Positions 21,442 to 57,054 of a stretch of DNA of 64,000 nt are shown one piece after another. The stretch is from the IMG/VR virus record IMGVR_UViG_3300027741_000001, one strand, 5' to 3'. Every line of letters begins with the position of its first letter. Within the stretch, counting starts at the first letter, position 1. The notes beneath the pieces were generated by a model that worked only from the letters and a program-made list of their open reading frames with translations, was not told the DNA's origin and searched no databases. The position numbers and the translations under genes are program-made. Source of the DNA: a virus.

Positions 21442-21454
21442 CACACCAGGATTT

Positions 21455-23503: not shown

Positions 23504-23646
23504 TGTTCCTCCTTAATAGGACAGTTGATGATGTCATATTTTGAGCATCATGCTAATCGGTTCAAGGTAAAGGGACTATCACGCATAGAAACGTGAAGGC
23601 ACTCCACCTAGTTATTATTTTACATTAGTTTTTACTTGTTTATTAT

Positions 23647-28167: not shown

Positions 28168-28235
28168 CTAAGTAAAATCCTCCATAATGGATGGTAACGT
28201 CAGCGTAGGCAAATATAACGCTTATACGCAGTACT

Positions 28236-28244
28236 ATTCTATCA
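28236..28244 (-). promoter_or_regulatory. Extended -10 promoter element upstream of the protease gene
   Basis: Minus strand TG-A-TAGAAT, flanked by two AGTACT copies. Confidence 0.5.
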
Positions 28245-28250
28245 GTACTA

Positions 28251-28445
28251 TTATTTAGTGTCTTTTTTTCTGTTCATTTCTTCAATGAACTTTCTGCCGT
28301 AAGCATCCCTAACTCGGTCATCTATCCCAATGTAAGGCTTAAGCTCTTCTAGGGTTGCTGTATTTAAATTAATATAGACAGTCTTAGGTTTATCTTTAGG
28401 ATCAAATGTATCCACAGATATTTGCACAATATTATCAATACTCAT
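28251..28445 (-). CDS. Small hypothetical protein (64 aa)
   Basis: RBS gaaggt and a TATAAT (28470-28475, minus strand) upstream. Confidence 0.65.
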   Translation of the reverse strand: MSIDNIVQISVDTFDPKDKPKTVYINLNTATLEELKPYIGIDDRVRDAYGRKFIEEMNRKKDTK

Positions 28446-28480
28446 TAGTTACCTTCTATTCCAAATATTATTATAATCTA

Positions 28481-28855
28481 TTAATTAACTGAAGAGTCTT
28501 TTTCATCTTCACTATCTTTTGGATCTAGATCCGACCACTTAGGGGCATTATCAGAAAAAGATACTATTTTTGGGTCTAGCCCATAGATAGAAGCTATAGC
28601 AAAAAGAACTGTATAAGCCGAACTTATACTTTTAAGTAAGGCTGGCCCGGAGGGAGGAATAAGAAAAGTTCCGTCTGGCTTAGATCTTATAGAGTCTATA
28701 AACTGCTCTATTTGAGAAATTATGTGATACCCATCATCTGACCCATCCCCTTTAAGGTAGGGAGATCTAGGAATCCAAGTAAGTTCTACTCCTTCTATAA
28801 TAAAATTCCAAATCTCAGACCAATCATCATACGGATATTCTAGTTCTTCATCCAT
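28481..28855 (-). CDS. Acidic hypothetical protein, candidate immunity/partner of the giant protein's C-terminal module
   Basis: 124 aa; starts 2 nt after the stop of the 6018-aa gene. Confidence 0.6.
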   Translation of the reverse strand: MDEELEYPYDDWSEIWNFIIEGVELTWIPRSPYLKGDGSDDGYHIISQIEQFIDSIRSKPDGTFLIPPSGPALLKSISSAYTVLFAIASIYGLDPKIVSFSDNAPKWSDLDPKDSEDEKDSSVN

Positions 28856-28857
28856 TA

Positions 28858-31800
28858 TTACTTATTCTCCCAGTTCAATAGTGACATCAGCAGACCGATT
28901 CCAAAAGCTTTTAGATCCCAGTCGGTGTCATTGGAAGGATCTAGTCCTTCAATTCCAGTGATCAGCTTAGGATCGATTTTAGTTGTCATAGTGGCATTAG
29001 TGTACCAAACGCCAGTTGCTATATCCATGTGAGCATCGCTGAATCTAGTAGTTTTTTTGCCTTTTCCAGTTTTCACGGTTACACCATTTGGAGTAGAGAA
29101 TCTACCGGGATCGGTAAATAGATCTTGCATCGTAGTAGTTATAACTTCAGCACTGTGGTTATTAGGACTAAAAGTAGCAAACTTACTGGTAGAACGAGGG
29201 TATACTTTCACAGTATAAGGATCTGCCACTTTTGCTCCAGAAAAAGATTCTTCCATCCATTTTTCATAAACTTCCATTGAAGGAATAATGTTGCTGCTAT
29301 CAGCTGTTTTTATTCTGTCATAAGAAAAAGCGTGTTCTAAAGCTGCAATGTCATGGTTGATCATCTGGAAGAAATGCCAAACTTCATGTAAGTAGTCATC
29401 AGTCGAGTCTCCACGGAAGAATCCTCCGTCACCCTGCTCTTTTTTCCATCTCAATGAATTTATTAAATTTTTATTTTTCCAGTGTTGTTTAAATTGCGCA
29501 CGTGCATCGGAAATTTGAACTCCAAGTTTTCCACCAGTATGAGCTAGATATTCCATTCCAGCTAGAATAATATCCTTAGGAACAAAACTAAGAGTTTCTT
29601 CTAGATTTTTAATAAGTTTCTTATTTCTATCTATTCTAATATCCTGGAATTTTTCATTACTATTAACATATTTGTAGTCTTTATATTGATTAAAGAACTG
29701 ATGTGCAGGCACCGAGTCAAATTCAACTCCAGCCTTTTCCATCTGAGATTTAATATTTTTACCAATTATAGAATGATATTTATTAGTAAAATCTTCTGCT
29801 TTTGGAGAAGCTCTAAGCCGATCTCTTACTTCCTTTATTTCAGTTGCTTTCTTGGCAAGGTCTGATGTGTCAATTTTACCTGTTCGAATAGCCCATTTGG
29901 TAAGCAGACTTAGGATAGTTTCTCCGCCCTCGTGTGCTCCCGTAACATCTATTAAAGCTCTTACTTCTTCTACATCTTTAGTTAATCTTAAAGTTTTTTT
30001 ATTTCTAACTCTTTGTAGCACAGTTTTACCAGTATCAAAAATAAACTCTGAATATGGGGTAGCATAATCATAAGCAAGTTTATGGGAAAGGTCATCCCCG
30101 TACTCAACTAGAAGCATATTAAAAGTTTCTTCTGCACTAAAAACATTTACATCTTTACCAGATAATTCTTTAGCAGCCTCTTGTTTTAAACTTTGGAATA
30201 TCTCTTCTTTATCTTCATAAGAAAGTCTATTGAAAGCATTTCTCATAAGATCTTGAGACATAGCTCTAAACTTACTGTCTCCCCTAAGTATTTCTCCGTT
30301 TAAGGATTTAGCATCATTCTCTAGCTTTTTTCTATATTCTTCAGCAGTAAATCCTTCAGGAATAAGACCTTCAGCTCTAGCTTGCTCATCTGAGATAGCT
30401 CTAGCATCATCTAGAATCATATGTCCTAGGCCGATTATTTCATTTTTAATAGCGGTAGCCTGATCAGATGGGGCTACTGCATCTTTTTTAGGAGATCCTT
30501 CAATCTGTACTACAGGACCATCAATCGCTATGCTTATGTCATTTTTAATTTTTCCAGGAGTAAACCCGATACCACTAGAAGCAATGTCCTTAGCCGCAGA
30601 TGCAATAATTTGTTCTCTAGAACCTTCCCTGTTTTGGCTAGGTTTATTATTATTTTGAATACCAAGTTTTTCTAGCATACCCTTTAGAAGATCAATAGCA
30701 GCTTTTTCTTTTCTTTCATCAACAGTAGCAATCTGATCATTGATCCAGTCCGCAACTTCTTTATGCCTTCCAATACCATCTTCGGATATTATCATTCCAG
30801 CATATGCTTCCGCTAGATATTCTCCTTCATCAGTAGCTGCATAGTCACTTAGAGGATATTCAGTCATAAATCTACGAAGCGTATCTTTCGTAGCCTGATC
30901 GCTAAAATTAATGATACCTTTTTGTTCAAGAACGTGTGCTATTTCGTGAGCAATTGTAGACTCTAGCTCTGTAGCATCTGCCCTAGGATTTTCAGTTAGT
31001 TTAGGGTTAGGTTTATTATCTTCTTCGTTCAAAATTTGACCATTAACAAACATGTGAGGAAAAGACAACCCAGCTAAGTTTCGGCCACGAGTACCATCAT
31101 CTCTAGTAAATGGCTTGAAAAAATCCTCTATATTAGGATGAGTAACAATAACTTGAAGCTCTTTTACAGGGAACTTAAATTTAACTCTAGATAATACATC
31201 CGAAAGTTTATTTGCAAATTTAGCCACTCCAGCAGCTGTAGCAGCTCTGTATTCGGTATTTACATTTGTTTTACCATTTTTCTTAGTTGGATTAGTTATA
31301 AATCTAACAACTTTAATAGTCACATTATTATCTTTATTTATATAGATATCGTGATGAGGAAGCAACATATGCTCCTCATCATGCCTATTAATTAAAGGAA
31401 TTATATGCTTAGTAAGATAGACCTGAGCATTAATAGATAGATTGTCACTACTAGCTCCATCTCCCTTAACAACACCCATGTACCACGTGTAAATAGCATT
31501 TTTTTCAGCCATCGTTAAGTTATCAGTTTCTACATCTGCTGCTAACCACTCTGGCTTTGCATCAGGAAGAGGTCTAGTTCTCTGATCTCCGGCACCAGAT
31601 AAAAGTGCTGTAATAAATGTTCTGTGTAGCTCGTTTAAGGAAATAGGTTCCTCGACTGGATTAGTTTGACCAGATCCTTCAGGAAGTTCATTTTCTTTAG
31701 CATCTAGTTTTTTCTTTTTTGCAAACTCGGAGATAACCCAGTCAGAGTTTTCTACACTATCATCAACGTTGATAGACGGAATCTCTCTATTTTGTGATGG

Positions 31801-34800
31801 GCCAGTGACATTAGGAGTACTCCTGTTAAATTCAATAAGATTATCAAAAGCGTTTTTATCTTTAGGAAGCTGGTCCACTAAATAGGAGATTACTTTATCT
31901 GCGTTCTCAGCGATAAAAGTTTTTTGATCAAGTACTTTATGAGAATCATCACTAGTAGCAGCCCTTACTAGTCTATTTTTTCCTGCCAGTAGAACTACTT
32001 CAGCTTCTTCAAAGCAACCAAAACCTGTGCCGGGAATAGAAAGTACCTGCTCAACAGGAATAATAGTTCCCATAAACATTCCGGCTCTTTCTTGCAACCT
32101 ACTAGTAGCAAAGTTGAAAGCATCACCGTGAAGCCAGGCCCAAGCTGACATAGGTCTTTGCAATATTTCAGCATCTCCTATGCCATTATACTCAATACCG
32201 GTATCTATTTTAAAAGCTTCTTCGTCTACTCCAGTACCTCTGTAAAGAGTTAAGTATTTTATTCCATAGTTTTTAAATCGATCCTGGGTAAGATCGTACA
32301 TAGTTTTTAAGAAATCTTTAAGAACAGAACTGTGGATTCCATAGTAGTATTCTGCATTTTCTAAAATATCTTTTGTATACTGGGCGTTTTTACTTTGAAC
32401 TTTCCATGGGGCCCACGAACCAGCAGGCATTTTAAATGTCTCAGCAGCAGCAATCTGTAAAGCGTGAGATAGCATATCACTACCATTAGATGTCTCTGCC
32501 CACTGCGCAACAAGTATTGAAGCGGCTTTTTCTTTAAATGCCTCTATGTCTTCCGGATTGTCAAAGAAAATTGGTTTTTTATTTTCATTTGCATAGTAAT
32601 CGTCAAAAAGAGTTTTATAGTCAATAGTTTTTTCATCGTAAGGGTTTCCGTACAGTTCTTCATCGTAAGGATCCATGAAATCTAGTACTTCTCTTAGAGT
32701 TTCTATATGTAATCCTTCATATGGAGAGTGCTCAGAGTCATCAATAAATAATATAATAGAATTTCCATTTAAATTATCCGATTTACTATCTAAAGCTTTT
32801 AGAGCCATCTTTTGACTATCTAGATAACTCAACCTAGATCTGACTACCTGACTGATAGATATGGCATGATCCAATGCTCCCAAAATATCTTTGGGAGAGG
32901 ATAACATATTATTACCTATATTTTTAGCGGCAATCTCTTTTAATTGCTCAGAGGCTCCGCCCATATGTCCAATTGAGCTATCTATATCAAAAGCATCCGG
33001 ATCGTACCACGTAGCAATCTCATTAAGTCCAGTCTCTTCATTCTCAGCCATAAGCTCATTTAAAAGATCAGACTGTATTTTAAGTACGTCTGTAAATCCA
33101 GGTACATCCTTTGGATCCAAATTGATTCTAGGGTATAAAAGATCTTCGTCATTAAATAGGTGGTATGGATTTATAAGTGATCCATCCTTAACATTCTTGA
33201 AGTTTTCTAGACTTCCATCCTTATTTAGAACTACATCTCCGACTCCTCCGGATCTTTCCATTGTAGTTGGATTTTTAAAGTCCACAGTGCTAACGCCAAC
33301 TACAACAGGCACATACTCTCTTCCAGCTATACGTGCAGCTTCAACCCTATGATTTCCTTCTGCAATAAAAGCTCTTCCAGTAAGAGGGTTGTACCAAACT
33401 AGTACCGGCTCTAAGTAGCCAGTTCCGTCTTCGAGGTCATGGGCTATAGAAGATGTACTGCTCTCCATATCTGCAAGATTGCCTTTCATTGTGGCAAGCT
33501 TTTCAGTTCTAACATAACCCAGTGGATTACCGCCATTACCTATTCCATATATTTTTACACCTTTGCCAGTCCATTCAGTAAGGTCTAGGTCTGGGTCATT
33601 CTTGTCTCTATAGGAGTTATTTAGAGGAATTACTTCAAGATATTTATTAAGAATAGTAGGCTCTTCAACATTTTCTCTATTTTGATTAGGTCCATAGTCA
33701 ATTTCATCGCCATCAAGCTTAGGCTCTTCTACAGGAAGACCCTTCTCCTTAAGAAGATCAATCTGTAGTTGCTTAGATTCTAAAGAATCGTGTACGTCTG
33801 GTTTTCCAGCATCCACCGAGTTAGAAAAAGCTTTACCGTACATGGTAAGAGTGCTTGAGTGGTTAACAGGTTTACTGTAGTGCTTACGAGCTACATACAA
33901 CATTGCTGTTGCAAGACCGCGGCGTCTATATTCATCATTGGTAAGTACTAAACCAATTTTAGCAGCAGCATTAGGATCTTTTTTGTCATCATCATCTACT
34001 CTTAATGAAGCTATATGAAGAAATTTTCCACCAAATGTATCTACATTTTCCATACCCTCAGGTGTAAAGTTGGGTGCTAAGAATCTACCTTCAAGATCAT
34101 GTACGGTTACCAGTACACTTTTATCGCTACTGCTGTCAGTGTTTATGTCAGTAAGGATCATATATTTTCTACCGTACTTATCAATAAATTTATCTGTGTA
34201 ACGGACAAACCCAGTAAACTTTTTAGGTTTAGATTTACCTAGAGTAACTTGATCAGCGATGGTTTCCATATTTGTTTTAGAATCTGGGTTAGCTACAGTT
34301 GTGAATTTAGTGTACTCAAATCTCCTAGAAATTTTAGCTGCACGTATTTTTGAGTCATCTCCCGAAGCTATGGCATCTTCTACATTTTTATTTTCCCAGT
34401 CCATGATTTTTTGCTGTTTTGCATTAAATGGAGTGCCGTCGGGCAGCTGAGTGTAATCATAATTATAGATAGTATCTAGATCAAGAGTACGATCATTAGG
34501 ATCAAAAGGCTCAGGCGGATACTGGTTCTCACGGTTTTGAGAAGGTTGATTATTAGATAGAGTAACCTTTGATTCATCATTTCTATGAAGATCAGGGTTA
34601 GGGTCAACTGAAAGAGAGAATGCTCTACCAAAAGAGGTTAACATTTCTGAGTGCTGGACTTCTTTTCCAGAACGCTCTCTTGCTAAGTGAAGAGCTGCAG
34701 TAGCTAGACCTCTTCTTACATATCTATCTGAAGTGTAGACCATGCTAATTTTGTTATTAAAGACATCTAATGAAGACACAGGAGTTCTATCTTCTGAATT

Positions 34801-37800
34801 ATCTTGAAGATCTTGTAGGGAGTTTTTACTCTTATCGTAAAGCTTTACGTTTGACATGCCGAGGCCGTTTACTACCTTGGTAACTACCCAGTACTGTCTG
34901 CCGTACTTGTCAGTAAACTCATCAATATACTGAGTACTCTGCTTGTACTCTGGTGGTAGATCTGCATAAGGTTTACCGGCACCGCTGTAGTTCATTCTAG
35001 AAGTATTGTCATCTAGAAGTCCCACCTGATCTTTAATACTTTCAAGATTAGTGCCAGACTTTAAGTTTGGTTTAGCGGTGTATCCCTGATAGATACGTCT
35101 TCTTTCAGCAATACGCAGTTTTCTTTCAAAATCATCAGGTTCATTGTCAATCGCATCTTTAAGAATATCCATTTGTTGCTGTTGATAAACATTGAATGGG
35201 GTACCATCAGGCATTTGAGTATAATCGTAGTTGTAATACTTCTCTAAATCAATAGTGGGATCTGTAGGATCAAAAGGTTCTTTCTTGGCTTTGTTTCTCT
35301 TGAAAAATCCTTCACGGTTTTGAGATGGTGCATTGTCTTCCTGTAGTTTTATAGACTTCTCGTTATTGTGCAGATCAGGCTTACCAGGGTCAATGCTGTT
35401 AGAGAAAGCAAATCCCATGCTAGAAAGATTATCTGAGTGAATTACTGGAAGTCCTAATCTCTTTTCTAGAACAGCAACCAATGCTGTTGCTATGCCTCTT
35501 CTTTGGTATCTATCGGTAACCATTACACTTTGGATTTCAGACACAGATGGGTCTCTAAATATGTAGGAATCGAGTCCTCCGACATCATTAATTCCAGACA
35601 CAGGTTGATCTTTTCTTACATAATCTTCAGGTAGAGGCATACCTTCAAAGTTTTTTTGGTCGTAGGCTACTACAGTCTGACGTCCAGAGCTTTCGTCTAT
35701 GTTAGTAACTATGTAGTATTTTCTACCATATTTATCGGTAAACTTATCCACATATCTTGTGTAAGTTAGTCCACGAGCTTCATCAAAATACTTTACAGCT
35801 GGCTTATCGCTAAACTCTACCTGTTTAAGAATGCTATCTCTTGTAGTAGAAGAGCCTTTGGTAGGCTTAGCAATTATTTGCTGATATAAAGTTCTTCTAA
35901 AGTTTTTTAAATTCTTTACAGCAAAAGAGTTAGCATCTTCATCATTATTTTTAAGAATGTTTTCTAATCTTTTAGCTATTGCATCCATCTGCTGCTGCTG
36001 ATCACTATTAAAAGGAGTGCCATCAGGCATCTTGGTATAGTCATAGTTGTAATACTCATCTAAATCTGCTTTTTTATCTCTAGGATCAAAAGGCTCTGGA
36101 AGGTACTTAGACTCTTCTTCCTTAGGAGCAGACTCTATTTTTTCAAAGTGCTTGTCAGCAGCTGGCCATAGATTGCGTAGCATTTCTTCAGGCATACCTT
36201 GAGCAGTAGGCTTAGTCATAAAGTCTGAGAGCTGGTCTCTACTAGTGAACATTCTCAAGAAATCGTCAACGTTGGTAGAAAGATCCCAGCTGCTCTGTTT
36301 AATCCAATCTGCATTTTCATCGCTGTTATCGATGTTTATAGGTTTTTCAGCACGTTCTCTATTTTGAGAAGGCTTGCTTTGTTCTTGAATTACTGTCTGT
36401 CCGCTTACTGGATCGTTAGATACAATTTGATTTCTTTCGGCTTCTTCTTTAATTGCCGCTTCTAGATCGCTATTATCTCTATTTCCAGGATATGAGTGAT
36501 ATGAGAACAAAGCTTCTTTTATGTCCCCGCCTAAAACAACAACTTCACGTTCATCCATAGATCCAAACCCAGATCCAGAAAATGATATAACTTTATCGGC
36601 CGGAACTATTGTAGCCATAACTACTGCATTTTTACCTGGCGAGTTCATTGCAAAACTCTCTGCTTTATATCTATTAGTTGACCATGAAGATAGTGGCCTC
36701 TGCTGTACAGTGCCTGAAAATACTCCAGTAGACCCTAAATTATTATAAATTTCATTTAGTTCTGTAGAGTCAGATCCCCTATACACAATAAACCCATCAA
36801 TACCCTGATCCTTCAGCAGATCTTGAGTAGCGTTATACATTGCATGTAAGAACTGTGTATAAATAAGTCTGTGATCTTTAACTTCTTGATCAACCTGATC
36901 TTCATAGTGGTTATTTAAATCTATTAAATCTTTTACTTCATTAGGAACGGTTCCCTGCTCCCTATAGATATCTACATTGTATTGATTCATGCCTCTAACA
37001 AAGCTCCACTCGGATGTGGCTTTAGGGTCCATAGCAAATATATCTTTAGCTACTTTTTGCATAGCATGAGATTTTATGTTTTTATCATTAGAAGACAGTG
37101 CCCATGAGTGAATTAAATTAGAAATCATTATTTTCTTCAGATCATTTACATCTTCCTGATTAAAACTTGAATGTACTCTTAAAAACAATTGATCATTTAT
37201 AAACTTTATAATACTGTTTGAATCTGTATTGCCCATTTTTTCTAGAACAGAATTCATAAGTTCTTTATTTACAGTCAATATAGATATAGTTGACAGACTC
37301 TTAACTTCATTAACATTAGTGACTAAAAGTTCTGTATCTTCTTTTATATCGGATAGATCTGCATTAAAAGCGTTGTATATTGATGAAGATGCAGGGCCTG
37401 AAAGACGAGAAAAAAAGGCCTCTTTTGCTATACCGTTGTAGTTCATGTAATGCACATCCATGCGGCTAGATGCATTAAATAGTGGAGAATATCCACCGCT
37501 CATAGCAGCTTTAAGCAAATCATCAAATCTAGCATCTGGCATATACCTAAGAAGTCTTGCAGCTGCAACTTGCTTAAGCAGGATAGATTGAGAAAACTCA
37601 GACGTTGAGCTAAACAGATCGGATATAGAGTCGCTTGCGCTCAGATCGTCTATTTCGCCATTTCTTACAGCATCTTCTACAGCTGAAATATTTGTCTTTT
37701 GAGTAGCTGTAGTGATATTTCTTTCAGCACCCTCACGGTTTTGGTTAGGGTTAGACTTTTCTTTAGCTGATTGAACGTCACCTAGATCACGGATCTTGTC

Positions 37801-46914: not shown

Positions 46915-47117
46915 TATTCTCCGCCATCCTTAAGGATGTCTACCCCGATTAAACGTTGCAGCTCCTCATTGGCGGCTTTAGAGCCTTCTAAAGTTAGGTT
47001 TACTAGTTGCTCGATTGAAAGAGATGAGTATGGCACTTTTTTAACAACGTGCTCATCATTTCTATAAGACTCTACGGTAAGCATAGGCTCGGCCTTAGAC
47101 TTTTTATTTTCGTCCAT
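46914..47117 (-). CDS. Small hypothetical protein (67 aa)
   Basis: Stop overlaps the GTG start of the giant gene; RBS agga. Confidence 0.65.
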   Translation of the reverse strand: MDENKKSKAEPMLTVESYRNDEHVVKKVPYSSLSIEQLVNLTLEGSKAANEELQRLIGVDILKDGGE

Positions 47118-47134
47118 TTATATATCCTACGTAG

Positions 47135-47287
47135 TTATTCTGACGGAGTGTTTTTAGGAGTAGGCTCTGCTACATCCTCTTCACCACTATCATATAGGAA
47201 ATCTGGATCGGGGTTTGGGAAAGAGATAGCAGTCCAATACTCTTCATCTTCAGGAGTATAGTGATCAGGGTTTAAATAATTTTCCAT
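47135..47287 (-). CDS. Small acidic hypothetical protein (50 aa, below the ORF-track cutoff)
   Basis: MENYLNPDHYTPEDEEYWTAISFPNPDPDFLYDSGEEDVAEPTPKNTPSE*; RBS GAGGAG upstream. Confidence 0.65.
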   Translation of the reverse strand: MENYLNPDHYTPEDEEYWTAISFPNPDPDFLYDSGEEDVAEPTPKNTPSE

Positions 47288-47324
47288 GTAAATACTCCTC
47301 GAAATAGTTAATAAGTCTGTAAAT

Positions 47325-47333
47325 AGTATACCA
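47325..47333 (-). promoter_or_regulatory. Extended -10 promoter element between the two giant genes
   Basis: Minus strand TG-G-TATACT in the intergenic gap. Confidence 0.5.
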
Positions 47334-47355
47334 AAGTATCTGAATAAAGACTTAA

Positions 47356-50300
47356 TTAACCACCAAGAAGTGCTTTAAGTTGATTAAGAATATTGACTCT
47401 ATCCTCAGGATCAGCTAGACTAATGCTCCAGTTGTTTGCTTTTCTATCCCAGAAGAATGAGAATGGGATCTTCTTATCTTTAGGTACTAGTGAAACACTC
47501 TTGATTAGATCTTTAGCAGCCATAGTATCACCCATCAGGAAGATTCTATTACCTTCGATTCGATAGTTGACACCGCCTCCAAGACCTCCAGAAGATCCAT
47601 CTTCACCAGTTACTGGCTCAATTGGCATGGAGGTAGCTCCAGGCTGATTAGTTGGATCATACTCTTCATCTGGGTTATCTTCATAGTAGCCAGCTAGGAT
47701 GTAGTCAACTGCCTTGCTTGCCATAGAAGCGGCCTCAAACAAAGCGTTTGGCTCTGTTTCCAAGAATCTCTTCCAAGACTGAACATAAGCAGCCACGTTT
47801 TCAATACTGGTGTTGATCCCAAACATAGAAGCTAAAATAGCTGCTCCAATTTCTGCAATAAGTTCTTCACGAGCACGGACATCCTTGTGCTTACCGTAGT
47901 TATCTAGAAGATCTTTACGATCTAGACGCTGAGGGTCTCCAGTACTGTGGACCAGCTCGTGGAACAAAGTATCTAGGTGCTCTTCAGTGCTATTGAACTG
48001 TTCTCTTAGAGGCAAGCTGACTGTGTCCGTCTGAGGTGACCAGAAAGCTGAGTCTCCAGGGGCATATTGGATGTTAGGCCCGCCTGTGTAGGAAGCAAGG
48101 ATGATATCCTCTACCTCGTGCATAGGAGGTGGGTCTTTTCTAGGAAGTGGTGGAATAGTAATACCCTTAACCACATCTTCGTTATAGACAACATCAATGT
48201 CGAGTCTAGTCTTGGTTCTAGAACCATCATCCGGCTTCTGGTCACCAGTCTTTGGGTCAATGATAGTTTTGGTCTCATCTGGCTTTACAGTGTACTTACT
48301 CTTCACAACCTTGGTTATAAGCACGCCATCGTTTTCGTCTACGTAGCCACCAAGCTTAGCAATAGCGTTCTTTGTATACCAGCGAGTACCTTTGTAGCCT
48401 CTGAATTGGCTTAGAACTTCTAGAATAACTAGGTTTCCACCCTTGTAGTTCTTACCAGTAGCGCCTGATGTAGGTAGGTAAGATCCACCGCCAGTCCAAG
48501 GCTTCTTCCAAGGAATAATTCCCTTATCCATAGCCTCGGTAATTTGAGCCATAACCTGATCTACAGCATCTTTATTGCTCTTTATAGGTTTGCTATTTTC
48601 GCGGTTTTGAGAAGGACCGTTGTCTTCTAGGTCTTTCCAACCAAAAATTGCCTCGGAAGCTCCAAAGATTCCAGATTTATTTGCCACTTCAGAGACCTTC
48701 ACGAACTTGTCACCATTTTCGTCAGTGTAAAGTTCTACTCTCTTATTTGGCAAAGCTGATCTGAGTTGAGCCACGTACTCTTCCGGATCTAGTCCATTAG
48801 GAATAGGGTCAAGAACAGGAGTCTCGATCTCGGCTGTCATTCTTTCAGCAGCGTGAACTGCCTCTGTGAGTTCCTTTAGACCGCGTTCTCCGCCAGGATA
48901 TTGAGGATCTCTAGAGATAGGCTCAAGAGACATCTGGTAATCGTACTCAGCTTGAATAGCTTCGTCATAGGCTGCATTAATCTCTTCTTCAGACATTACT
49001 GGCTGCTCAGATGCAGATTTATTAGGAGTTGAATCTGAATCTGATTCAATAGCTTTTGCAACTATATCTAAGCTAGACTCTTTGACGTTTTCTGGATCTG
49101 ACTTAGCATCTATGCTATTATCCCCTTGGAAAATAGTAGTTCCGTTTTTACGAACTTGGATAGCATCATTAGAGATAGTAGCTTCATACTTGCCATCAGG
49201 AGAACTCCAAGTGTGCTTGTAGTCATTTCCTTCAGGTCCACCTAGATATTCGGTATTCCAGTTAGCAGTGTAGTCATACTTACTGTCAGGGTTGGTAGCA
49301 CCTTCACGGTTTTGAGACGGGCCTCCGATAACCTTTTTAGCCTGCTGGCCATTAACATATGATGCACCGCCACCGCCATCAATAGCTTCAAAGAATACGC
49401 TAACTTCATCGGAATCGTGACGACTTATCATCTTGATTCTCTTGTTTCCCTTAGCAGTAACTACAGTGTCACCCTTTTGTAGAGTATTAGGGTCTACTTC
49501 TACAATTTCAGGTCCTGAGCTTTCAGTATTCTGTGAAGTAGGTTGATCAGGGCTCTTATCAGACCTAGCTTCTAGCTGGCGTAGGTAATCCTTACGCTTT
49601 GACTTGAATTCTTCTATCTTACCATCTAGCCAATCCAACATTCCAGGATCTAATTCATCCATAGTTCTAGTTACAGCAACGTACATAAGGTTCAATGCTT
49701 CTGTAGTAAGAGATCTAGGCATATTGCCCTTCTCGATAGCGTCAGCATCTTTTTGTGGGTTAGGCTTGAACCATGTTCCTGAAAGTTTAACTTGTTTAGC
49801 TTCTAGTCCCTTGGCTCGGTGAGCAGTTAGAACTACGCTGTCGACATCTGCACCACTTAGAGCGTCTACAAGAGCGCTTAGTTGCTCAGATCCATTTCCT
49901 TGAACAGGAGTGGTCCAGTCCCAAGTCTTACCTGTATCCCATGTGTATCCCATTGAAGATAGAGTGTCAGAGTTATTCTTAGTTCCATTATTTGGATTCT
50001 TTAGCTCAGGTGTCCAAGGCTTTGCATCACCAGTATTGTAGAGACGGATAGCCCCATTTTCAATCTTGTAGCTAATGAAGTTTCCAAGATCTCCTTCGTC
50101 GCCCCAGTTGCCATCCGAAGGCTTTTTGAATCCTTGAATACCAATGATTCTTGCACCATCTACTGTCCGCTTTAGTTCAGCAAATACTGCCTTGCCATCG
50201 TTATCTCTTTCTTGCTCTTCTAGACGAGCTTGAGTCAGCTCCATAATGCCTAGCAATCTTCCTACTGCTGGATCAGAATCTTCTTGGTGAAGTTCAAGCA

Positions 50301-53300
50301 TTTGCTTCCAGCTGTCGTAGGAGTCTAAGTCCTCATGCGCATTTGATGGGCGATACTTAGGATTAGCACCAAAAAATAGCCACTTAGCTGTAGCCAAGAA
50401 ACTATTCATTTCAGCTTTAAATTCCCTAATAACACCAGCACGTTGACCTCTACCAACCATAGTCATAATTTCTAGTAGAGCATCAGCGTTGGTTGTGGTA
50501 AGAATCATGTCTGCATCTGTCATACTTCCAGGAGTTGCAAGACTTGAAGTCTTATTTGGATTTCCGACTAGACGTTCGTCATCCTCGTCCTTAATCTCCA
50601 AAACCTGGTTAGCAAAATCAGCAACATCCTGTCCGGCACGGAACATCATGGTTAGAGGTAGGGTTACCATTCTTCTAAACATATTTAGGCTGTTGACGGC
50701 TCCACGGAACTGATAGATAGATTGGTGAGGATCTCCAACAACAACAAGCTGTATGCCATTGTTGTGTAGAGTCTCTTGCTCATCCATAAGTCTAAAGAAT
50801 ACTCCGTTAACGTCCTGAGCCTCATCAATCAGAATAATGTCTGGGATTGCACCAAGACCGTGGGCGCTTTCTCCCTTAGAGTTAACTTCTTTTAGATTAG
50901 GGTGGCTAAGAGCAAAGTTCTTCATCATATCGTTGAAAGTTACAGGAATCTGACGAACGCTGTCATCGTGCGGCTCTAGTTTTTCTTTCCATATTTTCTG
51001 AGCTAGCTCTAGGAAGAATGGGGTATAAGCCTCAGGGCCTCCTATTTTTTCTCCAATTGCATCGTCGAAGTGTTTTCTTTCAATCATGTCATCTGCACTA
51101 ATAGTCCAGTTGTTTAGACCCTTAAGTGTAATTTTTACTGCTAAGAACTTAGAAATTCTTTTTCCATTACCTAGCTCTACTTCGTTTGGAATCTTGAAGT
51201 AATCAGCTATATCTAAAAAGCCATTGATCGGTCTATTTTTTGCATCCGACTGCTTCTTCATAGCAATAAACTTCTTAGAAAGTTTGCTATTTACAGGAGC
51301 TTTGAAAGATACAGAGTCCATAGTTCTAATTTCAGTATTTCCAGGGAACTTAAGTCTGTTCTCATCTGCAATAGCTTTGTTGAAAGCCATAGCAAGAATT
51401 CTCTTCTTAGGGAAGTAGTGAAGTATTGCCTTTGCAAGACCGATCAAGGTAGTAGTTTTACCTGTACCGGCTAGAGCCTTGATAACAACTGACCATCCAC
51501 GAATACCAGCTTCAATAGCGTCTTTCTGCTGATCGGTGTACTCTTTATCCAAGAATTCAATATCGTGTCTACCTGTAGCCAGCTCAGCCTTGTTCTTGGT
51601 ATCTTCAGGACGTTCTCTATTTTGAGATGGGGCATCGATAACATCTTGAGCTGCTTGCTCTAGTTTCTTAATAGCAGAGTTGATAGCACGCTTTTCTGCT
51701 GGACTACTAGTAGAGCTTAAAGCATCTTGCAAATTAGTCATAGCATATGAGAGCCGAGACAAAGTACTCTGCTGATTCACGCCTTCGCGAAGTTGACTAG
51801 GGCCACTCTTTTTGTGACGGTCAGGATATTTCTCATCTAGGTAAGCATTTAACTTATCTAGGTCATATCCAGTAGGGACTCGTAAGCCATCAACGTCTAG
51901 GTTGTTAGCAATGGCGTAGTCAAGTTCTAGACCGTCCATTTCCTTAACTAGATCACCGATTTCGTTAGAGTTGACATTTGGAAGCAACTTCCAGATCTCT
52001 TCTCTACGTTCCGCAGATACTATGTCTCTAGGATCCAATAGACGTCTTTCAACGCTCTTCAACTGCTTAGGGCTTGGTTTTCTGATCTTATTTAGTGGAT
52101 CATCAATAACGTTGCTTTCAGTAAGAGGTTGTTCACCATCGTCTGGCTTTGGAGGAAATAAGCTTGAGAAAGTAGGACGATCGTTTGTAGGAGTTCCTTC
52201 TGGAGATGTAGAGTTAAGAGCATTTCTTGCTTCTTGCTCTAGATCCTTAGGATCTGGTTCGTCTCCTCTAGCAGCTCTTTCAACAGCTCTATCAGCTATA
52301 AATTTTAAAGCACGTTCGACAAATGCTTCGTATCCTGGAATATACTTAGCAAGTTTTGCATCATAGTCATTATCTGAAGCATCGAGATCAAAGATATTGT
52401 CTTTAATCAAATCGGTTCCAGACTTAGCTCTCTTAAGCATCTGCCCTAGAAGTTTGACGTTAAGTTCTAGATCATTAGCTGCATTATGTAATGAATTACT
52501 AGGAATACCTTCGTATCTTCCTAAAGCTTCTAGAGCGGTAGAACCATGTATACCAAAGTCTCCTACCTTATATGGACCACCAAGGTTAGTTTTTTTGTTA
52601 AATACATTGTAAATGTGATCAGCTAGTCCAAGCGTGTCAATCATTCCAGCAGGAGAATATTCTGCTAGTCCAGCTTCTTTAAGAGTTCTATTTAGGACTT
52701 CTAAATCGTAATCAGCAACGTTGTGACCAGCTAAAACTGCGTCTGGTCCTAGAAATTCTAAAGCCTTAGCAATAACTTCACTCTTGGTTGGGAGACTTGC
52801 AATCCACTCAGGAGTTACTCGATTGCCTTTGTCATCCTTTATATTTGCCATAGACCATGAACTTAAAGGAGATCCAGGATTCATGTAGCTTATAAACTTA
52901 TCAACGATTTCTCCGTTTACAACTTTATATATAGCAATCTGAATTGGATCGTTTTTAACATGAGGCTGTAAAGGGTCAAAGATACCGGTAGTTTCAAAAT
53001 CAATAAAGTGTAGAACTTTATCTCTCAAAGCTTCAGTTACATCATCCCAGTTCTTTGCTCCAGCCATCCAGTCGCGAACAACGCCCCAGAAAGCCTTAGG
53101 TTTAACTCTTGCAGGAGGTCTAGGCTTATTTGGGTGGTTAGAGTAGTCAATGATTCCAGGAACTGGATCGGTGTCAACTGGGATCTCTGGAGATTCAACA
53201 GGATTTGGCTCAAATACCTCTGCTGATGTGCTGTGGTCTACTTCATCTTCTAGAGATGGGTCGTAATCATTTTCGAATGGACTATTGTGGTATCCATCTC

Positions 53301-56300
53301 TACCCATAACAGAGCCGACTTCAGCTGCAAGTTTTTCAAGAGTCTCTACGGTCTTAGGCTTTTTATTCTTAAGACGTCCGTAGGTGTGAGCATTATCTGA
53401 GTCAGTTAGACCCTTCTTAATAGTCTCTAGACGTTCCATAACCTTAGCAGGTTTGATTACGTACTTTCTACGTAGGTCAAGCATACGCTTAAGATCCCTG
53501 ATGTCGTCGACTGCTCCGTCGATGATTCTTCTACCATCGGCATTTACAAGATCTCTGTGATTAGCAACAAAAGCTGCTAAACGAGTCAGAGCGTAGCGAG
53601 ATCTACGAGCAGCATTCTTACGAGCTTGTCTATTAACATATTGCTTTACTTCTTCTTGATCTTTTTCTTCAGCAAGAATCTCTTTACGAGCTTCATCGGT
53701 TGGCTTGTAGTCTTCCCAGCCTTCAGGGGCATTAGGTCTGCCAATAAGATCCATCAGGTTTAGGTCATTAATAGACGCTCCGCCTTCAATGGCTTTCTTT
53801 ATTAGAATACTGTCGTGAGCATCTTCACGAGCTTTAAGTTCAGAGATGATTTGAGTACTTACCTCGTATACGTTCATCCTAGGAACGGCTTTGACAATTG
53901 CAGCAATTTCTCTGTCGCTTGCTAATCCCTTGTCAAAGATACGTTCGATGCTGGCAAGCATTCTGTCAGATGCACCGTCAAAATCTCTAGCAACTAGCCC
54001 GTACTTGTTCTTAGGCTTGTACTGCTCTTTGAATGGATGCTCCTTGAATGTGTAATACCATTCACGGATCTCGCGAGCATTCATGTCTTTGTAGTTGTCC
54101 ATAAACTCTTGGACTAAATCTTGAGGAATATCTCTATCCTCTAAGAATCTTTCAATACCAACAAGTTGGCCATCGCTAGGGCCCATAGCTTCTTGAGGAA
54201 CGTTGCTGCTAAGGTACTTAGGACTTTCAGTAGGCTGATCTGCTAGCCAGTAGTCAGGCTTACCGTTTACAGTGTTCTCGGCTGCTCTAAGTTTTTCTAA
54301 TTCAGCTATTTCTTCTGGAGTAGGTTCTGGAGCCTGAGGTGGTTTAAAAGGTAGACTATAAGCTTTTTCGTGAAGTTGATCGTACTCTGCCCTGGTTAGG
54401 GTGTTGTCATCGATCTTTTTTCTGATCTCTTCTGCTTCTTGTTTACTCCAGTTTTTGTTATCTAAAGCCCAATTTAGGAATGATTTTTGAAGCCATGAAG
54501 CCATGCCTTTTTCAGGTGAGGTAAGTTCACGGAAGTTCTTTTCAATATACGCTGCAAGATCATTTACTTCTTTTACAGTGTGCTCTTCAGGATTCTTTCT
54601 GATCGCTCTAACTTTATCCCAAAGCTCTGGCTCATCTTGAACGTATCTAGAGTTTAGGATTGCAACTAGACGACGGACCTGACCCTCGTTAGGAATGAAG
54701 TCATCATTAACTCTGTTTTGAGAAGGACCTAAATCTGTATTCTTTGCTTCTTTAGAATTTACATATTTTGTTAAAGCTGAGTGCAGTCTAGATACATAGT
54801 AGGTGTCATCGTTAAACTTGTTTGGCTCATCTTCGGATGCAACATGCATCTCGTAGTATATTTCTGCAACAGCTTTTCGAGTTTTTTCTGCACTTCTACC
54901 GTTAGTAATATCGAAATCTTTAAACTCCGAGTACAAACTGAATCTATGTAGATTATCTGGAAGTTTAAACCAGTCTCTAAGAGCTTGAGTAAGAACCTCA
55001 TTTTCATCTTCACCAGGATAGATAGGGTGTGTCTTTAGAGGACCCATGCGTTTATCTACAATTTGAACGCTTCTTAGGTTATCTCCAGAATCAACAATTC
55101 TGGCAGAAATATCAGATCTTGAACCCTGTCCAGCCCAAAAACCATTGTCATTAAACTTTGGAGTGGTAAAGTCTCCAGGATAAGTGTCCTGTAGGAACTG
55201 TGCAATGATTGCATCAGCTTTCTTGATCATGTCAGAACCTGGGCCGAAGTAATCGTACTGGAAACGTTCTGATGGGTCTAGCTTAGAATACATCTCTCTT
55301 TGGTAGTCCGGAACGTTGGCAATGTTAGGGTTAAACAGCGGGTCTAAAGCTTCTAGATATTTAATAGCATGGACCTGGTCTTCAACCTGCTCCCAGTTAA
55401 AGAATGGAACCTGAGTGTCCATAGTGAAGTCACTATTGCCGTCACGTTCGGTTAGGGTATACACACCGTCAGACATAATTGGTTGGAATGAAACGTCTCC
55501 AGTTCTTTGGTCATACACCAAAGCAACGTCTGATTGACCATATCCGTAAGTTACGCGGAATCTGCGATCTTTAGATAAGTATGTGTTGTCTCCAATTTTG
55601 TTCCAGCCTTCTGGCATGGAACCATCTGGATCATTTTCGTTTTTGCCAGTAGATTCTGGCTTAGGCTCTTCTTCTGGAGTTTCTCGGTTTTGACTAGGAA
55701 CAACTGCTTCTACAGCAGGTTTTTCTTCAGGAGTTAGATCCTGGTTATCTTTATCTCCGAAACGATCATCTTCATCTCCAGCAATCTTCTGTACGCCAGC
55801 CCAGTCTTGTGCAAAACCAATAGGGCTTTTATTTCCCTTAGCACGCTTTGAACCCCAAACAGTAATAACTGGCTTAGTCATGTCTAGGTTTTCAGTACCA
55901 TCGGTGCCTACTATTTCTAGGCTATCGCCATACGCTTCTTTAGCTTTTTCTACAAAACTTTCAGTAACTTTATTAGGCTTATTTACCACAGAAGCGGTGT
56001 AGCCATCAGCTGAATCGTAGACTGCGTCAGAGTGAAGTTCATTACCGGTAAAAGTTGAACTAGTCGGAGTATACGGACTCTTTACCCAGCCTTCTGGCAT
56101 ATCAGCAACAACAAGATCTTTAATATCAACAATGTCGTTATCATTTGGAACCGCTTTTCCAACTGGAAGATCTTTAACTGCTTCGGCAGGTAGAATAGCT
56201 GCAACGGCTTCAAAAGCTGACGCTGGAATTTTGTAAAGTCCATTTTTTAAACCCGGAATATCTGTAATTTCAAAGTCTATGTAGCCACCATTTTCAGAGT

Positions 56301-57054
56301 AACCTGCAACTTTACCTGTAACGCTTCTAACGTCTCCTTTAGGAAAACGTACGTTTACTTTTCCACCGCCACCCATTTCGATCCATCGACCCTTAGAGTC
56401 ACGGAGCTGACGCTTGGCACGAAGTGAACGCCAGAAGCTCGAGTTCTTACCTTTGAAAACATTCATTGCTGAGTGGTAAGCACTCTTTACTTTACTTAAG
56501 AGACCGGCTGTAAGAGGGCTAACAAGTACGTCAATTGGCAGACTTCCAGCTGGAAGAGCTAGTAGACGTGTGTATGCGTGTTGAAATTGTACGTCCATTG
56601 GGTGGGCACCGTAAACAGATGCAACTAGTGAACGAACTTCTTCATCTTCAATACGTGGATCTGCTGAGTACCAAGCACCACGTCGAGTACGAAACGTAAT
56701 TGGATCAAGTGACAACTCAGCTGTAGAACTTGGGTGGTATTCAGGTAGTAGATCGGTGTTACGGTCTTGACCGTTAGGACGTGGGCCTTCTGTAGCCAAA
56801 CTAAGGAAATGCGAAAGCTCACGAAGAACGTTGAAGTAACGTACGTCGGTAGTAAGATTTTCTGCTGCAGAAGCAGTGAGTGATCTCAATGCAACAGTTT
56901 CTAATTGCTGTTCGGTGACTCTACGAATCTCTTCAACTCGAGCATTCTGCTCTAGCGTGAAGTTAAAGATCAGCTCGGATACAGAGATATCCTCTGGCAT
57001 CTCGACTGATAGCTGGTCATCAAACTGCTTAATTAGATTAATTTTCTTACTCAC
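47356..57054 (-). CDS. Giant (3232 aa) polyvalent protein: DEDDh exonuclease, UvrD-like SF1 helicase, ArdC-like antirestriction (ssDNA-binding + zincin) module
   Basis: DFETTG...GHNVADYD...HNAAND (~52440-53020). Helicase motifs ALAGTGKTT, AFNKAIA, IDEAQD, VGDPHQSIYQFRGA, TAHRAKGLE, YVAVTR (~49640-51550). ArdC IPWKKPW...YKGGNL...AFWSP..D.VSLP...F...TLFHELVHSTG..RLDR...REELIAEIGA...AYVQSW (~47690-48570). Confidence 0.88.
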   Translation of the reverse strand: MSKKINLIKQFDDQLSVEMPEDISVSELIFNFTLEQNARVEEIRRVTEQQLETVALRSLTASAAENLTTDVRYFNVLRELSHFLSLATEGPRPNGQDRNTDLLPEYHPSSTAELSLDPITFRTRRGAWYSADPRIEDEEVRSLVASVYGAHPMDVQFQHAYTRLLALPAGSLPIDVLVSPLTAGLLSKVKSAYHSAMNVFKGKNSSFWRSLRAKRQLRDSKGRWIEMGGGGKVNVRFPKGDVRSVTGKVAGYSENGGYIDFEITDIPGLKNGLYKIPASAFEAVAAILPAEAVKDLPVGKAVPNDNDIVDIKDLVVADMPEGWVKSPYTPTSSTFTGNELHSDAVYDSADGYTASVVNKPNKVTESFVEKAKEAYGDSLEIVGTDGTENLDMTKPVITVWGSKRAKGNKSPIGFAQDWAGVQKIAGDEDDRFGDKDNQDLTPEEKPAVEAVVPSQNRETPEEEPKPESTGKNENDPDGSMPEGWNKIGDNTYLSKDRRFRVTYGYGQSDVALVYDQRTGDVSFQPIMSDGVYTLTERDGNSDFTMDTQVPFFNWEQVEDQVHAIKYLEALDPLFNPNIANVPDYQREMYSKLDPSERFQYDYFGPGSDMIKKADAIIAQFLQDTYPGDFTTPKFNDNGFWAGQGSRSDISARIVDSGDNLRSVQIVDKRMGPLKTHPIYPGEDENEVLTQALRDWFKLPDNLHRFSLYSEFKDFDITNGRSAEKTRKAVAEIYYEMHVASEDEPNKFNDDTYYVSRLHSALTKYVNSKEAKNTDLGPSQNRVNDDFIPNEGQVRRLVAILNSRYVQDEPELWDKVRAIRKNPEEHTVKEVNDLAAYIEKNFRELTSPEKGMASWLQKSFLNWALDNKNWSKQEAEEIRKKIDDNTLTRAEYDQLHEKAYSLPFKPPQAPEPTPEEIAELEKLRAAENTVNGKPDYWLADQPTESPKYLSSNVPQEAMGPSDGQLVGIERFLEDRDIPQDLVQEFMDNYKDMNAREIREWYYTFKEHPFKEQYKPKNKYGLVARDFDGASDRMLASIERIFDKGLASDREIAAIVKAVPRMNVYEVSTQIISELKAREDAHDSILIKKAIEGGASINDLNLMDLIGRPNAPEGWEDYKPTDEARKEILAEEKDQEEVKQYVNRQARKNAARRSRYALTRLAAFVANHRDLVNADGRRIIDGAVDDIRDLKRMLDLRRKYVIKPAKVMERLETIKKGLTDSDNAHTYGRLKNKKPKTVETLEKLAAEVGSVMGRDGYHNSPFENDYDPSLEDEVDHSTSAEVFEPNPVESPEIPVDTDPVPGIIDYSNHPNKPRPPARVKPKAFWGVVRDWMAGAKNWDDVTEALRDKVLHFIDFETTGIFDPLQPHVKNDPIQIAIYKVVNGEIVDKFISYMNPGSPLSSWSMANIKDDKGNRVTPEWIASLPTKSEVIAKALEFLGPDAVLAGHNVADYDLEVLNRTLKEAGLAEYSPAGMIDTLGLADHIYNVFNKKTNLGGPYKVGDFGIHGSTALEALGRYEGIPSNSLHNAANDLELNVKLLGQMLKRAKSGTDLIKDNIFDLDASDNDYDAKLAKYIPGYEAFVERALKFIADRAVERAARGDEPDPKDLEQEARNALNSTSPEGTPTNDRPTFSSLFPPKPDDGEQPLTESNVIDDPLNKIRKPSPKQLKSVERRLLDPRDIVSAERREEIWKLLPNVNSNEIGDLVKEMDGLELDYAIANNLDVDGLRVPTGYDLDKLNAYLDEKYPDRHKKSGPSQLREGVNQQSTLSRLSYAMTNLQDALSSTSSPAEKRAINSAIKKLEQAAQDVIDAPSQNRERPEDTKNKAELATGRHDIEFLDKEYTDQQKDAIEAGIRGWSVVIKALAGTGKTTTLIGLAKAILHYFPKKRILAMAFNKAIADENRLKFPGNTEIRTMDSVSFKAPVNSKLSKKFIAMKKQSDAKNRPINGFLDIADYFKIPNEVELGNGKRISKFLAVKITLKGLNNWTISADDMIERKHFDDAIGEKIGGPEAYTPFFLELAQKIWKEKLEPHDDSVRQIPVTFNDMMKNFALSHPNLKEVNSKGESAHGLGAIPDIILIDEAQDVNGVFFRLMDEQETLHNNGIQLVVVGDPHQSIYQFRGAVNSLNMFRRMVTLPLTMMFRAGQDVADFANQVLEIKDEDDERLVGNPNKTSSLATPGSMTDADMILTTTNADALLEIMTMVGRGQRAGVIREFKAEMNSFLATAKWLFFGANPKYRPSNAHEDLDSYDSWKQMLELHQEDSDPAVGRLLGIMELTQARLEEQERDNDGKAVFAELKRTVDGARIIGIQGFKKPSDGNWGDEGDLGNFISYKIENGAIRLYNTGDAKPWTPELKNPNNGTKNNSDTLSSMGYTWDTGKTWDWTTPVQGNGSEQLSALVDALSGADVDSVVLTAHRAKGLEAKQVKLSGTWFKPNPQKDADAIEKGNMPRSLTTEALNLMYVAVTRTMDELDPGMLDWLDGKIEEFKSKRKDYLRQLEARSDKSPDQPTSQNTESSGPEIVEVDPNTLQKGDTVVTAKGNKRIKMISRHDSDEVSVFFEAIDGGGGASYVNGQQAKKVIGGPSQNREGATNPDSKYDYTANWNTEYLGGPEGNDYKHTWSSPDGKYEATISNDAIQVRKNGTTIFQGDNSIDAKSDPENVKESSLDIVAKAIESDSDSTPNKSASEQPVMSEEEINAAYDEAIQAEYDYQMSLEPISRDPQYPGGERGLKELTEAVHAAERMTAEIETPVLDPIPNGLDPEEYVAQLRSALPNKRVELYTDENGDKFVKVSEVANKSGIFGASEAIFGWKDLEDNGPSQNRENSKPIKSNKDAVDQVMAQITEAMDKGIIPWKKPWTGGGSYLPTSGATGKNYKGGNLVILEVLSQFRGYKGTRWYTKNAIAKLGGYVDENDGVLITKVVKSKYTVKPDETKTIIDPKTGDQKPDDGSRTKTRLDIDVVYNEDVVKGITIPPLPRKDPPPMHEVEDIILASYTGGPNIQYAPGDSAFWSPQTDTVSLPLREQFNSTEEHLDTLFHELVHSTGDPQRLDRKDLLDNYGKHKDVRAREELIAEIGAAILASMFGINTSIENVAAYVQSWKRFLETEPNALFEAASMASKAVDYILAGYYEDNPDEEYDPTNQPGATSMPIEPVTGEDGSSGGLGGGVNYRIEGNRIFLMGDTMAAKDLIKSVSLVPKDKKIPFSFFWDRKANNWSISLADPEDRVNILNQLKALLGG

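Follow-up and report, generated by a model that had tools for sequence, protein, structure and literature searches.

Two giant proteins in the head operon of an actinophage

What would lead a phage to place two giant multi-enzyme proteins among its head genes, and how might proteins of this size be put to use? The question is raised by the IMG/VR virus record IMGVR_UViG_3300027741_000001, which stems from an uncultured phage of Actinobacteria. The whole stretch of DNA analysed here (the window, 64,000 bases) corresponds to bases 14–64013 of this 113,694-base record, which is estimated to be 81% complete. All large open reading frames (ORFs) of the window are on the minus strand. A first-pass annotation had described two ORFs, here called A and B, totalling 9250 amino acids (aa) between the portal and Dps genes and the protease gene, and they are present as described. 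Since full-length orthologues exist on other metagenome contigs (57–95% identity for B, 52–84% for A), both are real genes. Together they take up 27,756 bases, which amounts to 24% of the record, or to ~20% when set against the contigs of close relatives (roughly 135 kb).

47356–57054, minus strand: giant protein B, 3232 aa, modules B1–B8; nine full-length orthologues
28858–46914, minus strand: giant protein A, 6018 aa, modules A1–A10; full-length orthologues on other contigs

Judging from their sequences, A and B are probably phage-type polyvalent cargo polyproteins, in which a recurrent hexapeptide would serve as the recognition site of a phage-encoded protease. This cutting-code reading is based on a motif that is enriched, selected at the protein level, bound to module joints, coincident with the limits of module swaps, and replaced in concert in sister lineages.

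A hexapeptide marks the module joints

Splitting both proteins at the hexapeptide P-[S/N]-Q-N-R-E yielded the modules B1–B8 and A1–A10. The peptide stands at 16 joints, in 13 exact and three degenerate copies, and is found at module joints only, where it brackets every paralogous unit (two exonucleases, two ADP-ribosyltransferase (ART)-like modules, three GNATs, and two handle domains).

55681–55698, minus strand: site B1/B2, exact
54709–54726, minus strand: site B2/B3, degenerate, ends in V
51784–51801, minus strand: site B3/B4, degenerate, Q-L-R-E
51613–51630, minus strand: site B4/B5, exact
49522–49539, minus strand: site B5/B6, degenerate, T-S-Q-N-T-E
49303–49320, minus strand: site B6/B7, exact
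48598–48615, minus strand: site B7/B8, exact
46147–46164, minus strand: site A1/A2, exact pattern, P-A-Q-N-R-E
42124–42141, minus strand: site A2/A3, exact
37732–37749, minus strand: site A3/A4, exact, cassette-swap breakpoint
36355–36372, minus strand: site A4/A5, exact, cassette-swap breakpoint
35311–35328, minus strand: site A5/A6, exact
34528–34545, minus strand: site A6/A7, exact
33673–33690, minus strand: site A7/A8, exact
31783–31800, minus strand: site A8/A9, exact
30625–30642, minus strand: site A9/A10, exact

A degenerate DNA pattern for P-x-Q-N-R-E matched 13 times in the window, compared with 0.03 matches expected from shuffles. The whole 113.7-kb record contained the same 13 matches, all in frame in A or B, and the reversed control gave none. 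The first-pass annotation had already named these sites as the places at which to split the proteins, and the split indeed gave modules, but it understated the role of the peptide, which proved to be the most informative feature of the locus. The codons for Pro, Ser, Asn, Arg, and Glu differ among the copies, indicating that the peptide, and not the underlying DNA, is under selection; because of this codon variety, a DNA-level repeat or recombination signal was rejected as the primary cause of the motif. One decayed joint, P-N-Q-F-R-I (45070–45090, minus strand; A residues ~609–616), directly precedes the HExxH module of A2. It is kept in all orthologues of the lineage with Q-N-R-E sites (QNRE lineage), and a regular site occupies this place in the sister lineage described below.

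The motif is replaced in concert in sister lineages

Close relatives of the window keep the Q-N-R-E sites (P0003-5, P0013-17, L011, L012, L017, L040, and L049). A sister lineage (PKEE lineage) has G-P-S-[P/Q]-K-[E/Q]-E at the orthologous columns (P0006-8 and P0010-11 for B; P0018-20, L013, L015, L016, and L042 for A and B), and P0009 has G-P-S-Q-S-K-K at orthologous joints. Alignment of the window with P0019 gives 70–90% identity for most of the 60-residue flanks, with zero to three of the six motif residues retained at most joints and five of six at one site. The joint motif is thus uniform inside a genome and replaced wholesale between genomes, a pattern predicted for a shared trans-acting reader. 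Intermediate forms also exist, namely Q-Q-R-E in P0004 and a mixture of P-K-E-E with Q-K-E-E in L015 and P0010. When the window is compared with P0015, identity drops at precisely the A3/A4 joint, from 0.98 to 0.27, and recovers from 0.40 to 0.80–1.0 at A4/A5, showing that module replacement stops at the motif.

More distant relatives were collected via the protease, which gave 29 loci, or via the portal, from which 80 of at least 596 loci were taken. Some of their giant proteins are punctuated by G-F-A-Q-x-P-G, with up to 12 copies (L029, L038, L061-63, L099), one of which directly precedes a terminal ArdC-N plus MPTase pair. Other joint peptides in the same slot are I-D-K-M-A-P (L024, L055), N-I-A-P-D-A-E-G (L036), and L-x-E-D-L-G-T (L119), and the protease, capsid, and tail ORFs next to the giants contain none of these four peptides. 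P-I-Y-H-S-S and Q-E-M-A-T are also used in this slot. Certain repeats were set aside. Ten copies of K-R-N-A-D-A-K-A-Y-G, ~20–50 aa apart, in a protein encoded upstream of the protease gene of L026 (ORF 6124-9930, aa 778–1180) look like a repeat array rather than a joint code, and the GNAT motif-A repeats (P0055, P0067, L060) and Ala/Pro-rich linkers flagged by the motif finder are not joint motifs either.

Modules of protein B

The modules of B are listed in coding order.

55681–57054, minus strand: B1, N-terminal handle module, core domain 55975–56472, ends at the first motif site; paralogue of A1
54709–55680, minus strand: B2, 324-aa module; no match in Pfam, PHROG, or ESM Atlas
51784–54708, minus strand: B3, helical N-terminal part and DEDDh exonuclease (~52450–53007); RNase_T 3e-14, phrog_192, PolC exonuclease 2p1j
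51613–51783, minus strand: B4, 57-aa mini-module between two sites
49522–51612, minus strand: B5, UvrD/SF1 helicase; PF00580 5e-18, phrog_1967 3e-64
49303–49521, minus strand: B6, 73-aa mini-module
48598–49302, minus strand: B7, 235-aa module; no Pfam or PHROG match
47359–48597, minus strand: B8, full ArdC (ArdC-N single-stranded DNA-binding domain and HExxH MPTase); PF08401 3e-17, PF18818 4e-29, phrog_7245 3.5e-58

Sequence matches make the assignments of the B3 exonuclease, the B5 helicase, and the B8 ArdC secure. Among PDB entries, B5 matches F-box DNA helicase 1 (FBH1, 9xzj_F) at 2.9e-24 and GajB, UvrD, and PcrA at 6e-8 to 1e-4. B8 scores above the respective Pfam cut-offs (63.3 bits for PF08401, 101.7 bits for PF18818), matches ArdC 6i89_A at 1e-31 across chain residues 4–283, nearly the whole chain, and has an intact HExxH motif. 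B2 and the N-terminal part of B3 gave no usable match in the ESM Atlas, and BLAST detected no internal repeats in B1–B3, A2, or A3.

Modules of protein A

The modules of A, among them a paralogous pair and a paralogous triplet, are again given in coding order.

46147–46914, minus strand: A1, N-terminal handle module, paralogue of B1
42124–46146, minus strand: A2, DEDDh exonuclease, HExxH module (A residues ~616–1000), Gly/Arg-rich linkers, helical region; RNase_T 5e-11, phrog_192
37732–42123, minus strand: A3, 1464-aa module; no match in Pfam, PHROGs, or ESM Atlas, no internal repeats
36355–37731, minus strand: A4, ART-like module 1, helical N-terminal part and R-S-E core; paralogue of A8 (31% identity, 3e-25)
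35311–36354, minus strand: A5, GNAT 1, acidic leader peptide at the N-terminus; PF00583 22.2 bits (cut-off 20.7)
34528–35310, minus strand: A6, GNAT 2; 40% identical to A5 (9e-52)
33673–34527, minus strand: A7, GNAT 3; 37–38% identical to A5 and A6, weak GNAT Pfam matches
31783–33672, minus strand: A8, ParB/Srx-like motif region (N-terminal) and ART-like module 2; phrog_1033 4e-4, AlphaFold2 (AF2) model
30625–31782, minus strand: A9, HExxH module with weak likeness to M78, not present in the PKEE lineage; PF06114 E 0.0017, below the cut-off, and a lethal factor fragment at E 0.05
28861–30624, minus strand: A10, conserved C-terminal module with invariant H-E-x-x-H...E-H (alignment)

The assignment of A5 as a GNAT, together with its paralogues A6 and A7, is likewise secure by sequence. 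The acetyl-CoA motif A, R-R-G-x-A-T-A, is invariant in 14 GNAT modules, and in the weak PDB list for these modules every acetyltransferase match falls on it.

For A4 and A8, fold and invariant motifs support an assignment as R-S-E ART-like modules. Y-R-G, R-P-x-S-x-W, and E-x-E are invariant across 14 sequences of both paralogues; the Ser motif has Trp as its third residue, where an R-S-E ART would be expected to have a motif of the Ser-x-Ser type. In the AF2 model of A8 (predicted local distance difference test (pLDDT) 60–94 for residues 193–617), the top 15 structural matches are all ARTs, except for the anthrax lethal factor at rank 9, and include a Listeria ART toxin, HopU1, iota-like toxin, C2-I, ART2.2, VIP2, Certhrax, C3, and ExoS. 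The scores are modest (Z 4.3–5.2, root-mean-square deviation 4.4–5.4 Å over 151–190 residues, best Foldseek E 0.015), and Pfam and PDB sequence searches gave no match to an ART for either module. The structure models were built on shallow alignments.

An acidic peptide, I-N-[I/V]-D-x-S-x-E-N-x-D-W, stands just past the joint after each ART-like module (36301–36339 and ~31735–31773, minus strand). In the PKEE lineage, a second joint motif closes this peptide and sets it off as a separate ~30-aa piece (L013 ORF 3-9512 aa 1129–1166; L015; L016). It could be an ART-associated inhibitor or pro-peptide.

The sequence-based assignments of the ParB-like motif and of the three HExxH modules (A2, A9, A10) are weak. 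The ParB-like region of A8 has a weak phrog_1033 match (E 4e-4 over 55 residues) and no Pfam match, and the model has a pLDDT below 50 there. The AF2 model of A10 found only generic helical hairpins among its structural matches, which does not confirm a zincin fold, and PDB sequence-profile searches gave nothing useful for A4, A8, A9, or A10.

The enzyme arsenal that the first-pass annotation had read into the two proteins is thus borne out for the exonuclease (found in both), UvrD, ArdC-N plus MPTase-PolyVal, and GNAT, for the ARTs through fold and motifs only, and weakly for the zincins of A; ParB, which it had listed among the domains of the class, has a weak match in A8. Its proposed division of labour, with B acting on nucleic acid and A mostly on proteins, holds in part, since A also has an intact DEDDh exonuclease, a paralogue of the one in B3 (36% identity), and a ParB-like motif. 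Its suggestion that long stretches lacking recognisable motifs may hide new effector folds holds as far as the lack of matches goes: A3, B2, the N-terminal part of B3, B7, and A10 had none in Pfam, PHROGs, PDB sequences, or the ESM Atlas, so that new folds are possible there. Overall, about half of the length of A and B is without any match; no assignment could be given to A1, A3, A10, B1, B2, B4, B6, B7, most of A2, and the N-terminal half of B3.

A common N-terminal handle domain

A1 and B1 have a domain in common (26% identity, 8e-8). Nearly all related loci encode this domain, at a distance of 1–6 kb past the portal. It is also found at the N-termini of Pumpernickel gp82, the giant protein of Actinomycetia phage DSL-LC01, and a second post-portal protein of DSL-LC01. 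With a profile of 27 copies, 610 cluster representatives reached E ≤1e-3, and 414 reached E ≤1e-10. Among the best 150 matches, the domain lies at approximately residues 10–165 or 180–345 of proteins of 153–7004 aa, 113 of which exceed 1500 aa. It has no Pfam or PDB sequence match, and hence no match to MuF by sequence. The cargo behind the handle varies: BLAST searches of 149 handle proteins identified the exonuclease in 27, the helicase in 26, and ArdC in seven, and found no match to A3, A9, or A10. This pattern would fit a head-incorporation domain. Present in at least 610 clusters, the handle domain offers a means of finding such cargo proteins across actinophage metagenomes.

From precursor to effectors: a proposed route and its alternatives

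Under the cutting-code reading, the handle domain at the N-terminus would probably bring each giant into the assembling head. Behind it follows a chain of self-contained modules joined by P-[S/N]-Q-N-R-E. In B these comprise a DEDDh exonuclease, a UvrD helicase, ArdC, and unassigned modules; in A they comprise three GNATs and two ART-like modules besides a DEDDh exonuclease, HExxH modules, a ParB-like region, and unassigned modules. A phage-encoded protease would then divide the precursor of ~1 MDa into ~18 pieces, either inside the prohead or once it has been delivered. As infection begins, the freed pieces may target nucleic acid, whether of the host or incoming, as well as host proteins. 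Packaging and injection of A and B are suggested by the position of the genes and by analogy.

Several observations weigh against this reading. None of the other ORFs of the window, including those for capsid, portal, Dps, and protease, has even a loose form of the hexapeptide. In a strict count that excluded GNAT-domain and Ala/Pro-rich repeats, a clear joint motif (at least five spaced copies) was present in only seven of 113 giant relatives of at least 1500 aa; shuffled controls gave no motif with five or more copies. The chimeric protein P0020 (3404 aa, on a 66-kb contig) combines nine P-K-E-E joints with one final Q-N-R-E, which is followed by a QNRE-type A10, while A8 and A9 are deleted; because it mixes the codes, co-evolution of one protease with one code is not absolute. 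Furthermore, only three of the 17 fixed differences that separate the protease proteins of the two motif lineages are in the S78-like core, and none is specific to a motif class across the wider family.

The last point concerns the identity of the reader. By analogy with T4, phiKZ, and SPN3US, the head protease is the default candidate (PMC5694885, PMC10052503). The window and the P-K-E-E genome L013 share 86% identity in the 1506-aa protease protein, and a comparison of four QNRE genomes with three PKEE genomes shows only the 17 fixed differences mentioned above. Of the three in the S78-like core, two fall in variable linkers; the remaining one, at a Leu/Met position, varies regardless of motif class. 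Since its core is near-identical in lineages with different motifs, and since the motif is missing from every other head protein, the S78-like protease is a poor candidate. Charge compensation in this protease (N1152R paired with the Arg-to-Glu change in the site) was considered and rejected, the position being in a variable linker and not tracking the motif elsewhere.

The code may therefore be read by a dedicated protease, possibly only after injection, an alternative we regard as tenable but rather doubtful. Its best internal candidates would be the HExxH modules of A (residues ~616–1000 and A10) or the MPTase of ArdC, and zincin-mediated processing of polyvalent proteins has been proposed before (PMC5512222). 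Along with the lack of co-variation between the S78-like core and the motif, it is favoured by identities that drop exactly between motif lineages, to 30–50% for the HExxH module of A2, compared with 70–90% for the flanking exonuclease, and to 33–34% for A10, compared with 72–81% for A5–A8; this divergence points to an internal zincin as the reader. The individual candidates nevertheless have difficulties. P0020 pairs a QNRE-type A10 with nine P-K-E-E sites, and the model search did not confirm a zincin fold for A10. A9 is missing from the PKEE lineage, and the ArdC MPTase (B8) is 87–91% identical across motif lineages. Two giants punctuated by G-F-A-Q lack any HExxH, so any protease for them must act in trans. 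It would be speculative, and we put it forward tentatively, to see in phages of this group a second proteolytic system apart from head maturation, in which a fast-evolving protease and its site code dice megadalton cargo into effectors, the same site serves as a junction for cassette exchange, and repertoire and code evolve together.

Two further explanations dispense with cutting or with packaging. If the hexapeptide were an uncleaved linker or a docking tag for scaffold, inner capsid surface, or DNA, the giants would act intact, like P1 DarB or the N4 virion RNA polymerase, and some polyvalent proteins are indeed transferred at full length (PMC5512222). We consider this unlikely, as a passive linker has no need for six invariant residues that are uniform at 16 joints and replaced in step in sister lineages, and a docking tag would be expected on other head proteins, none of which has the motif. 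Less plausible again is that A and B are not virion cargo at all, but late cytoplasmic polyproteins for replication, recombination, or anti-defence that happen to be encoded in the head operon. Exonuclease, helicase, and ParB-like domains are also found in replication modules; yet the portal and head protease genes flank those of A and B on one strand, convincing terminators are lacking in between, their N-terminal domain is common to proteins encoded just after the portal across the phage group, and ArdC and the ART/GNAT effectors would be useful only at entry.

Gene order and neighbourhood

In coding order, the giants are preceded by the C-terminal part of TerL, the portal, and a ferritin/Dps protein fused to DUF5824. 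ORF B is followed by two small ORFs, ORF A, two more small ORFs, and the 1506-aa protease protein, past which the major head protein (phrog_777), an adaptor, and the major tail protein are encoded.

58247–60052, minus strand: portal; phrog_776 1e-100, 72% identical to the portal of Actinomycetia phage DSL-LC01
57072–58229, minus strand: Dps/ferritin and DUF5824; PF00210 1e-14, PF19141 3e-7
23647–28167, minus strand: 1506-aa protein with S78-like head-maturation protease core (~aa 771–1180); phrog_18402 8e-56, PF04586 weak
21455–23503, minus strand: major head protein; phrog_777 4e-73

With its counterparts in four Microbacterium phages of 186–195 kb (Pumpernickel, Big4, Zooman, and A3Wally), the portal shares 59–63% identity. 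In DSL-LC01, a metagenome-assembled phage with a predicted Actinomycetia host (PMC10611076), and in the Microbacterium relatives, ORFs of 3289 aa and 2235 aa fill the slot between portal and protease.

The small ORFs in the gap between B and A are at 47135–47287 (50 aa) and 46914–47117 (67 aa), and those between A and the protease gene at 28481–28855 (124 aa) and 28251–28445 (64 aa), all on the minus strand; the latter two have no PHROG match. Small ORFs likewise separate the giant ORF from the protease gene in DSL-LC01. DSL-LC01 has a gene of its own for the C-terminal, DUF5824 half of the Dps fusion (L001 23253–24296, 45% identity); this half has a weak 35-residue echo in B1. A scan of the intergenic gaps for promoters and terminators gave nothing above chance. 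The G+C content is 36–40% in the giant genes (28000–46000) versus 45–48% in the adjoining protease, capsid, and tail genes (18000–28000), a contrast consistent with mosaic, exchanged cargo cassettes.

Comparison with known systems

Polyvalent phage proteins, whose domains include ArdC, MPTase, helicase, nuclease, GNAT, and ART, are an established class (PMC5512222, PMC7824862). Iyer, Burroughs, Anand, de Souza, and Aravind (2017, PMC5512222) predicted that such proteins of phages and conjugative elements are packaged into the capsid and processed by proteases. A and B resemble them in combining many effector domains per chain, with ArdC-N and MPTase-PolyVal alongside helicase, nuclease, GNAT, and ART, and in belonging to a portal-terminase phage, as the genes around the pair (TerL, portal, head protease, major capsid protein) show. 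The polyvalent, multi-enzyme reading offered by the first-pass annotation thus agrees with both the modules and their slot between portal and protease. The differences lie in size, with 9250 aa and ~18 modules in the window pair versus 2–15 domains in the 2017 survey, and in the explicit, strictly conserved, lineage-specific hexapeptide at the joints. We found no paper in the open-access literature that defines joint or cleavage motifs in polyvalent proteins. While the 2017 prediction of processing came without defined sites, candidate sites can here be read from the sequence at 16 joints, and the sister lineages provide natural switches, being 70–90% identical around a wholly different motif, which makes the processing hypothesis directly testable. 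The joints also mark the exact limits of ~18 modules, about half of which have no known relative.

Head proteases of the T4, phiKZ, and SPN3US type provide a second comparison. As with T4 gp21, which acts on Alt and the internal proteins (IPs), and its phiKZ and SPN3US counterparts, the cargo genes are located among head genes and a short motif recurs, with cleavage and entry of the cargo into the cell being predicted here; Alt of T4 is itself an ART. In these phages, a single three-residue motif is also used in capsid, scaffold, and protease, and it has stayed the same across long evolutionary distances. The window motif, in contrast, is six residues long, is found in A and B alone, and differs between lineages in which the head protease core is ~90% identical. 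In SPN3US, the head protease cuts ejection proteins at short motifs (PMC5694885, PMC10052503).

Gp47 of phi24B and P1 DarB are very large multi-domain proteins carried in the capsid, as A and B may be. To our knowledge, no punctuation motif has been reported for either protein. Gp47, a polyvalent protein of 2811 aa, was detected in phi24B virions (bioRxiv 10.64898/2026.04.10.717836). ArdC of plasmid R388 (6i89), which B8 resembles over nearly its whole chain, stands alone as a protein of a conjugative plasmid, whereas B8 comes behind a motif site, as the last module in a phage protein of 3232 aa.

The polyproteins of positive-strand RNA viruses, finally, are comparable by analogy only. A and B share no homology with them, belong to a DNA phage, and are composed of accessory effectors instead of replication or structural units. 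Still, in both cases the units are separated by a consensus, attributed to a virus-specific protease in the RNA viruses, that differs between groups, and an effector repertoire that evolves together with its cutting code, as tentatively proposed above, would extend this likeness.

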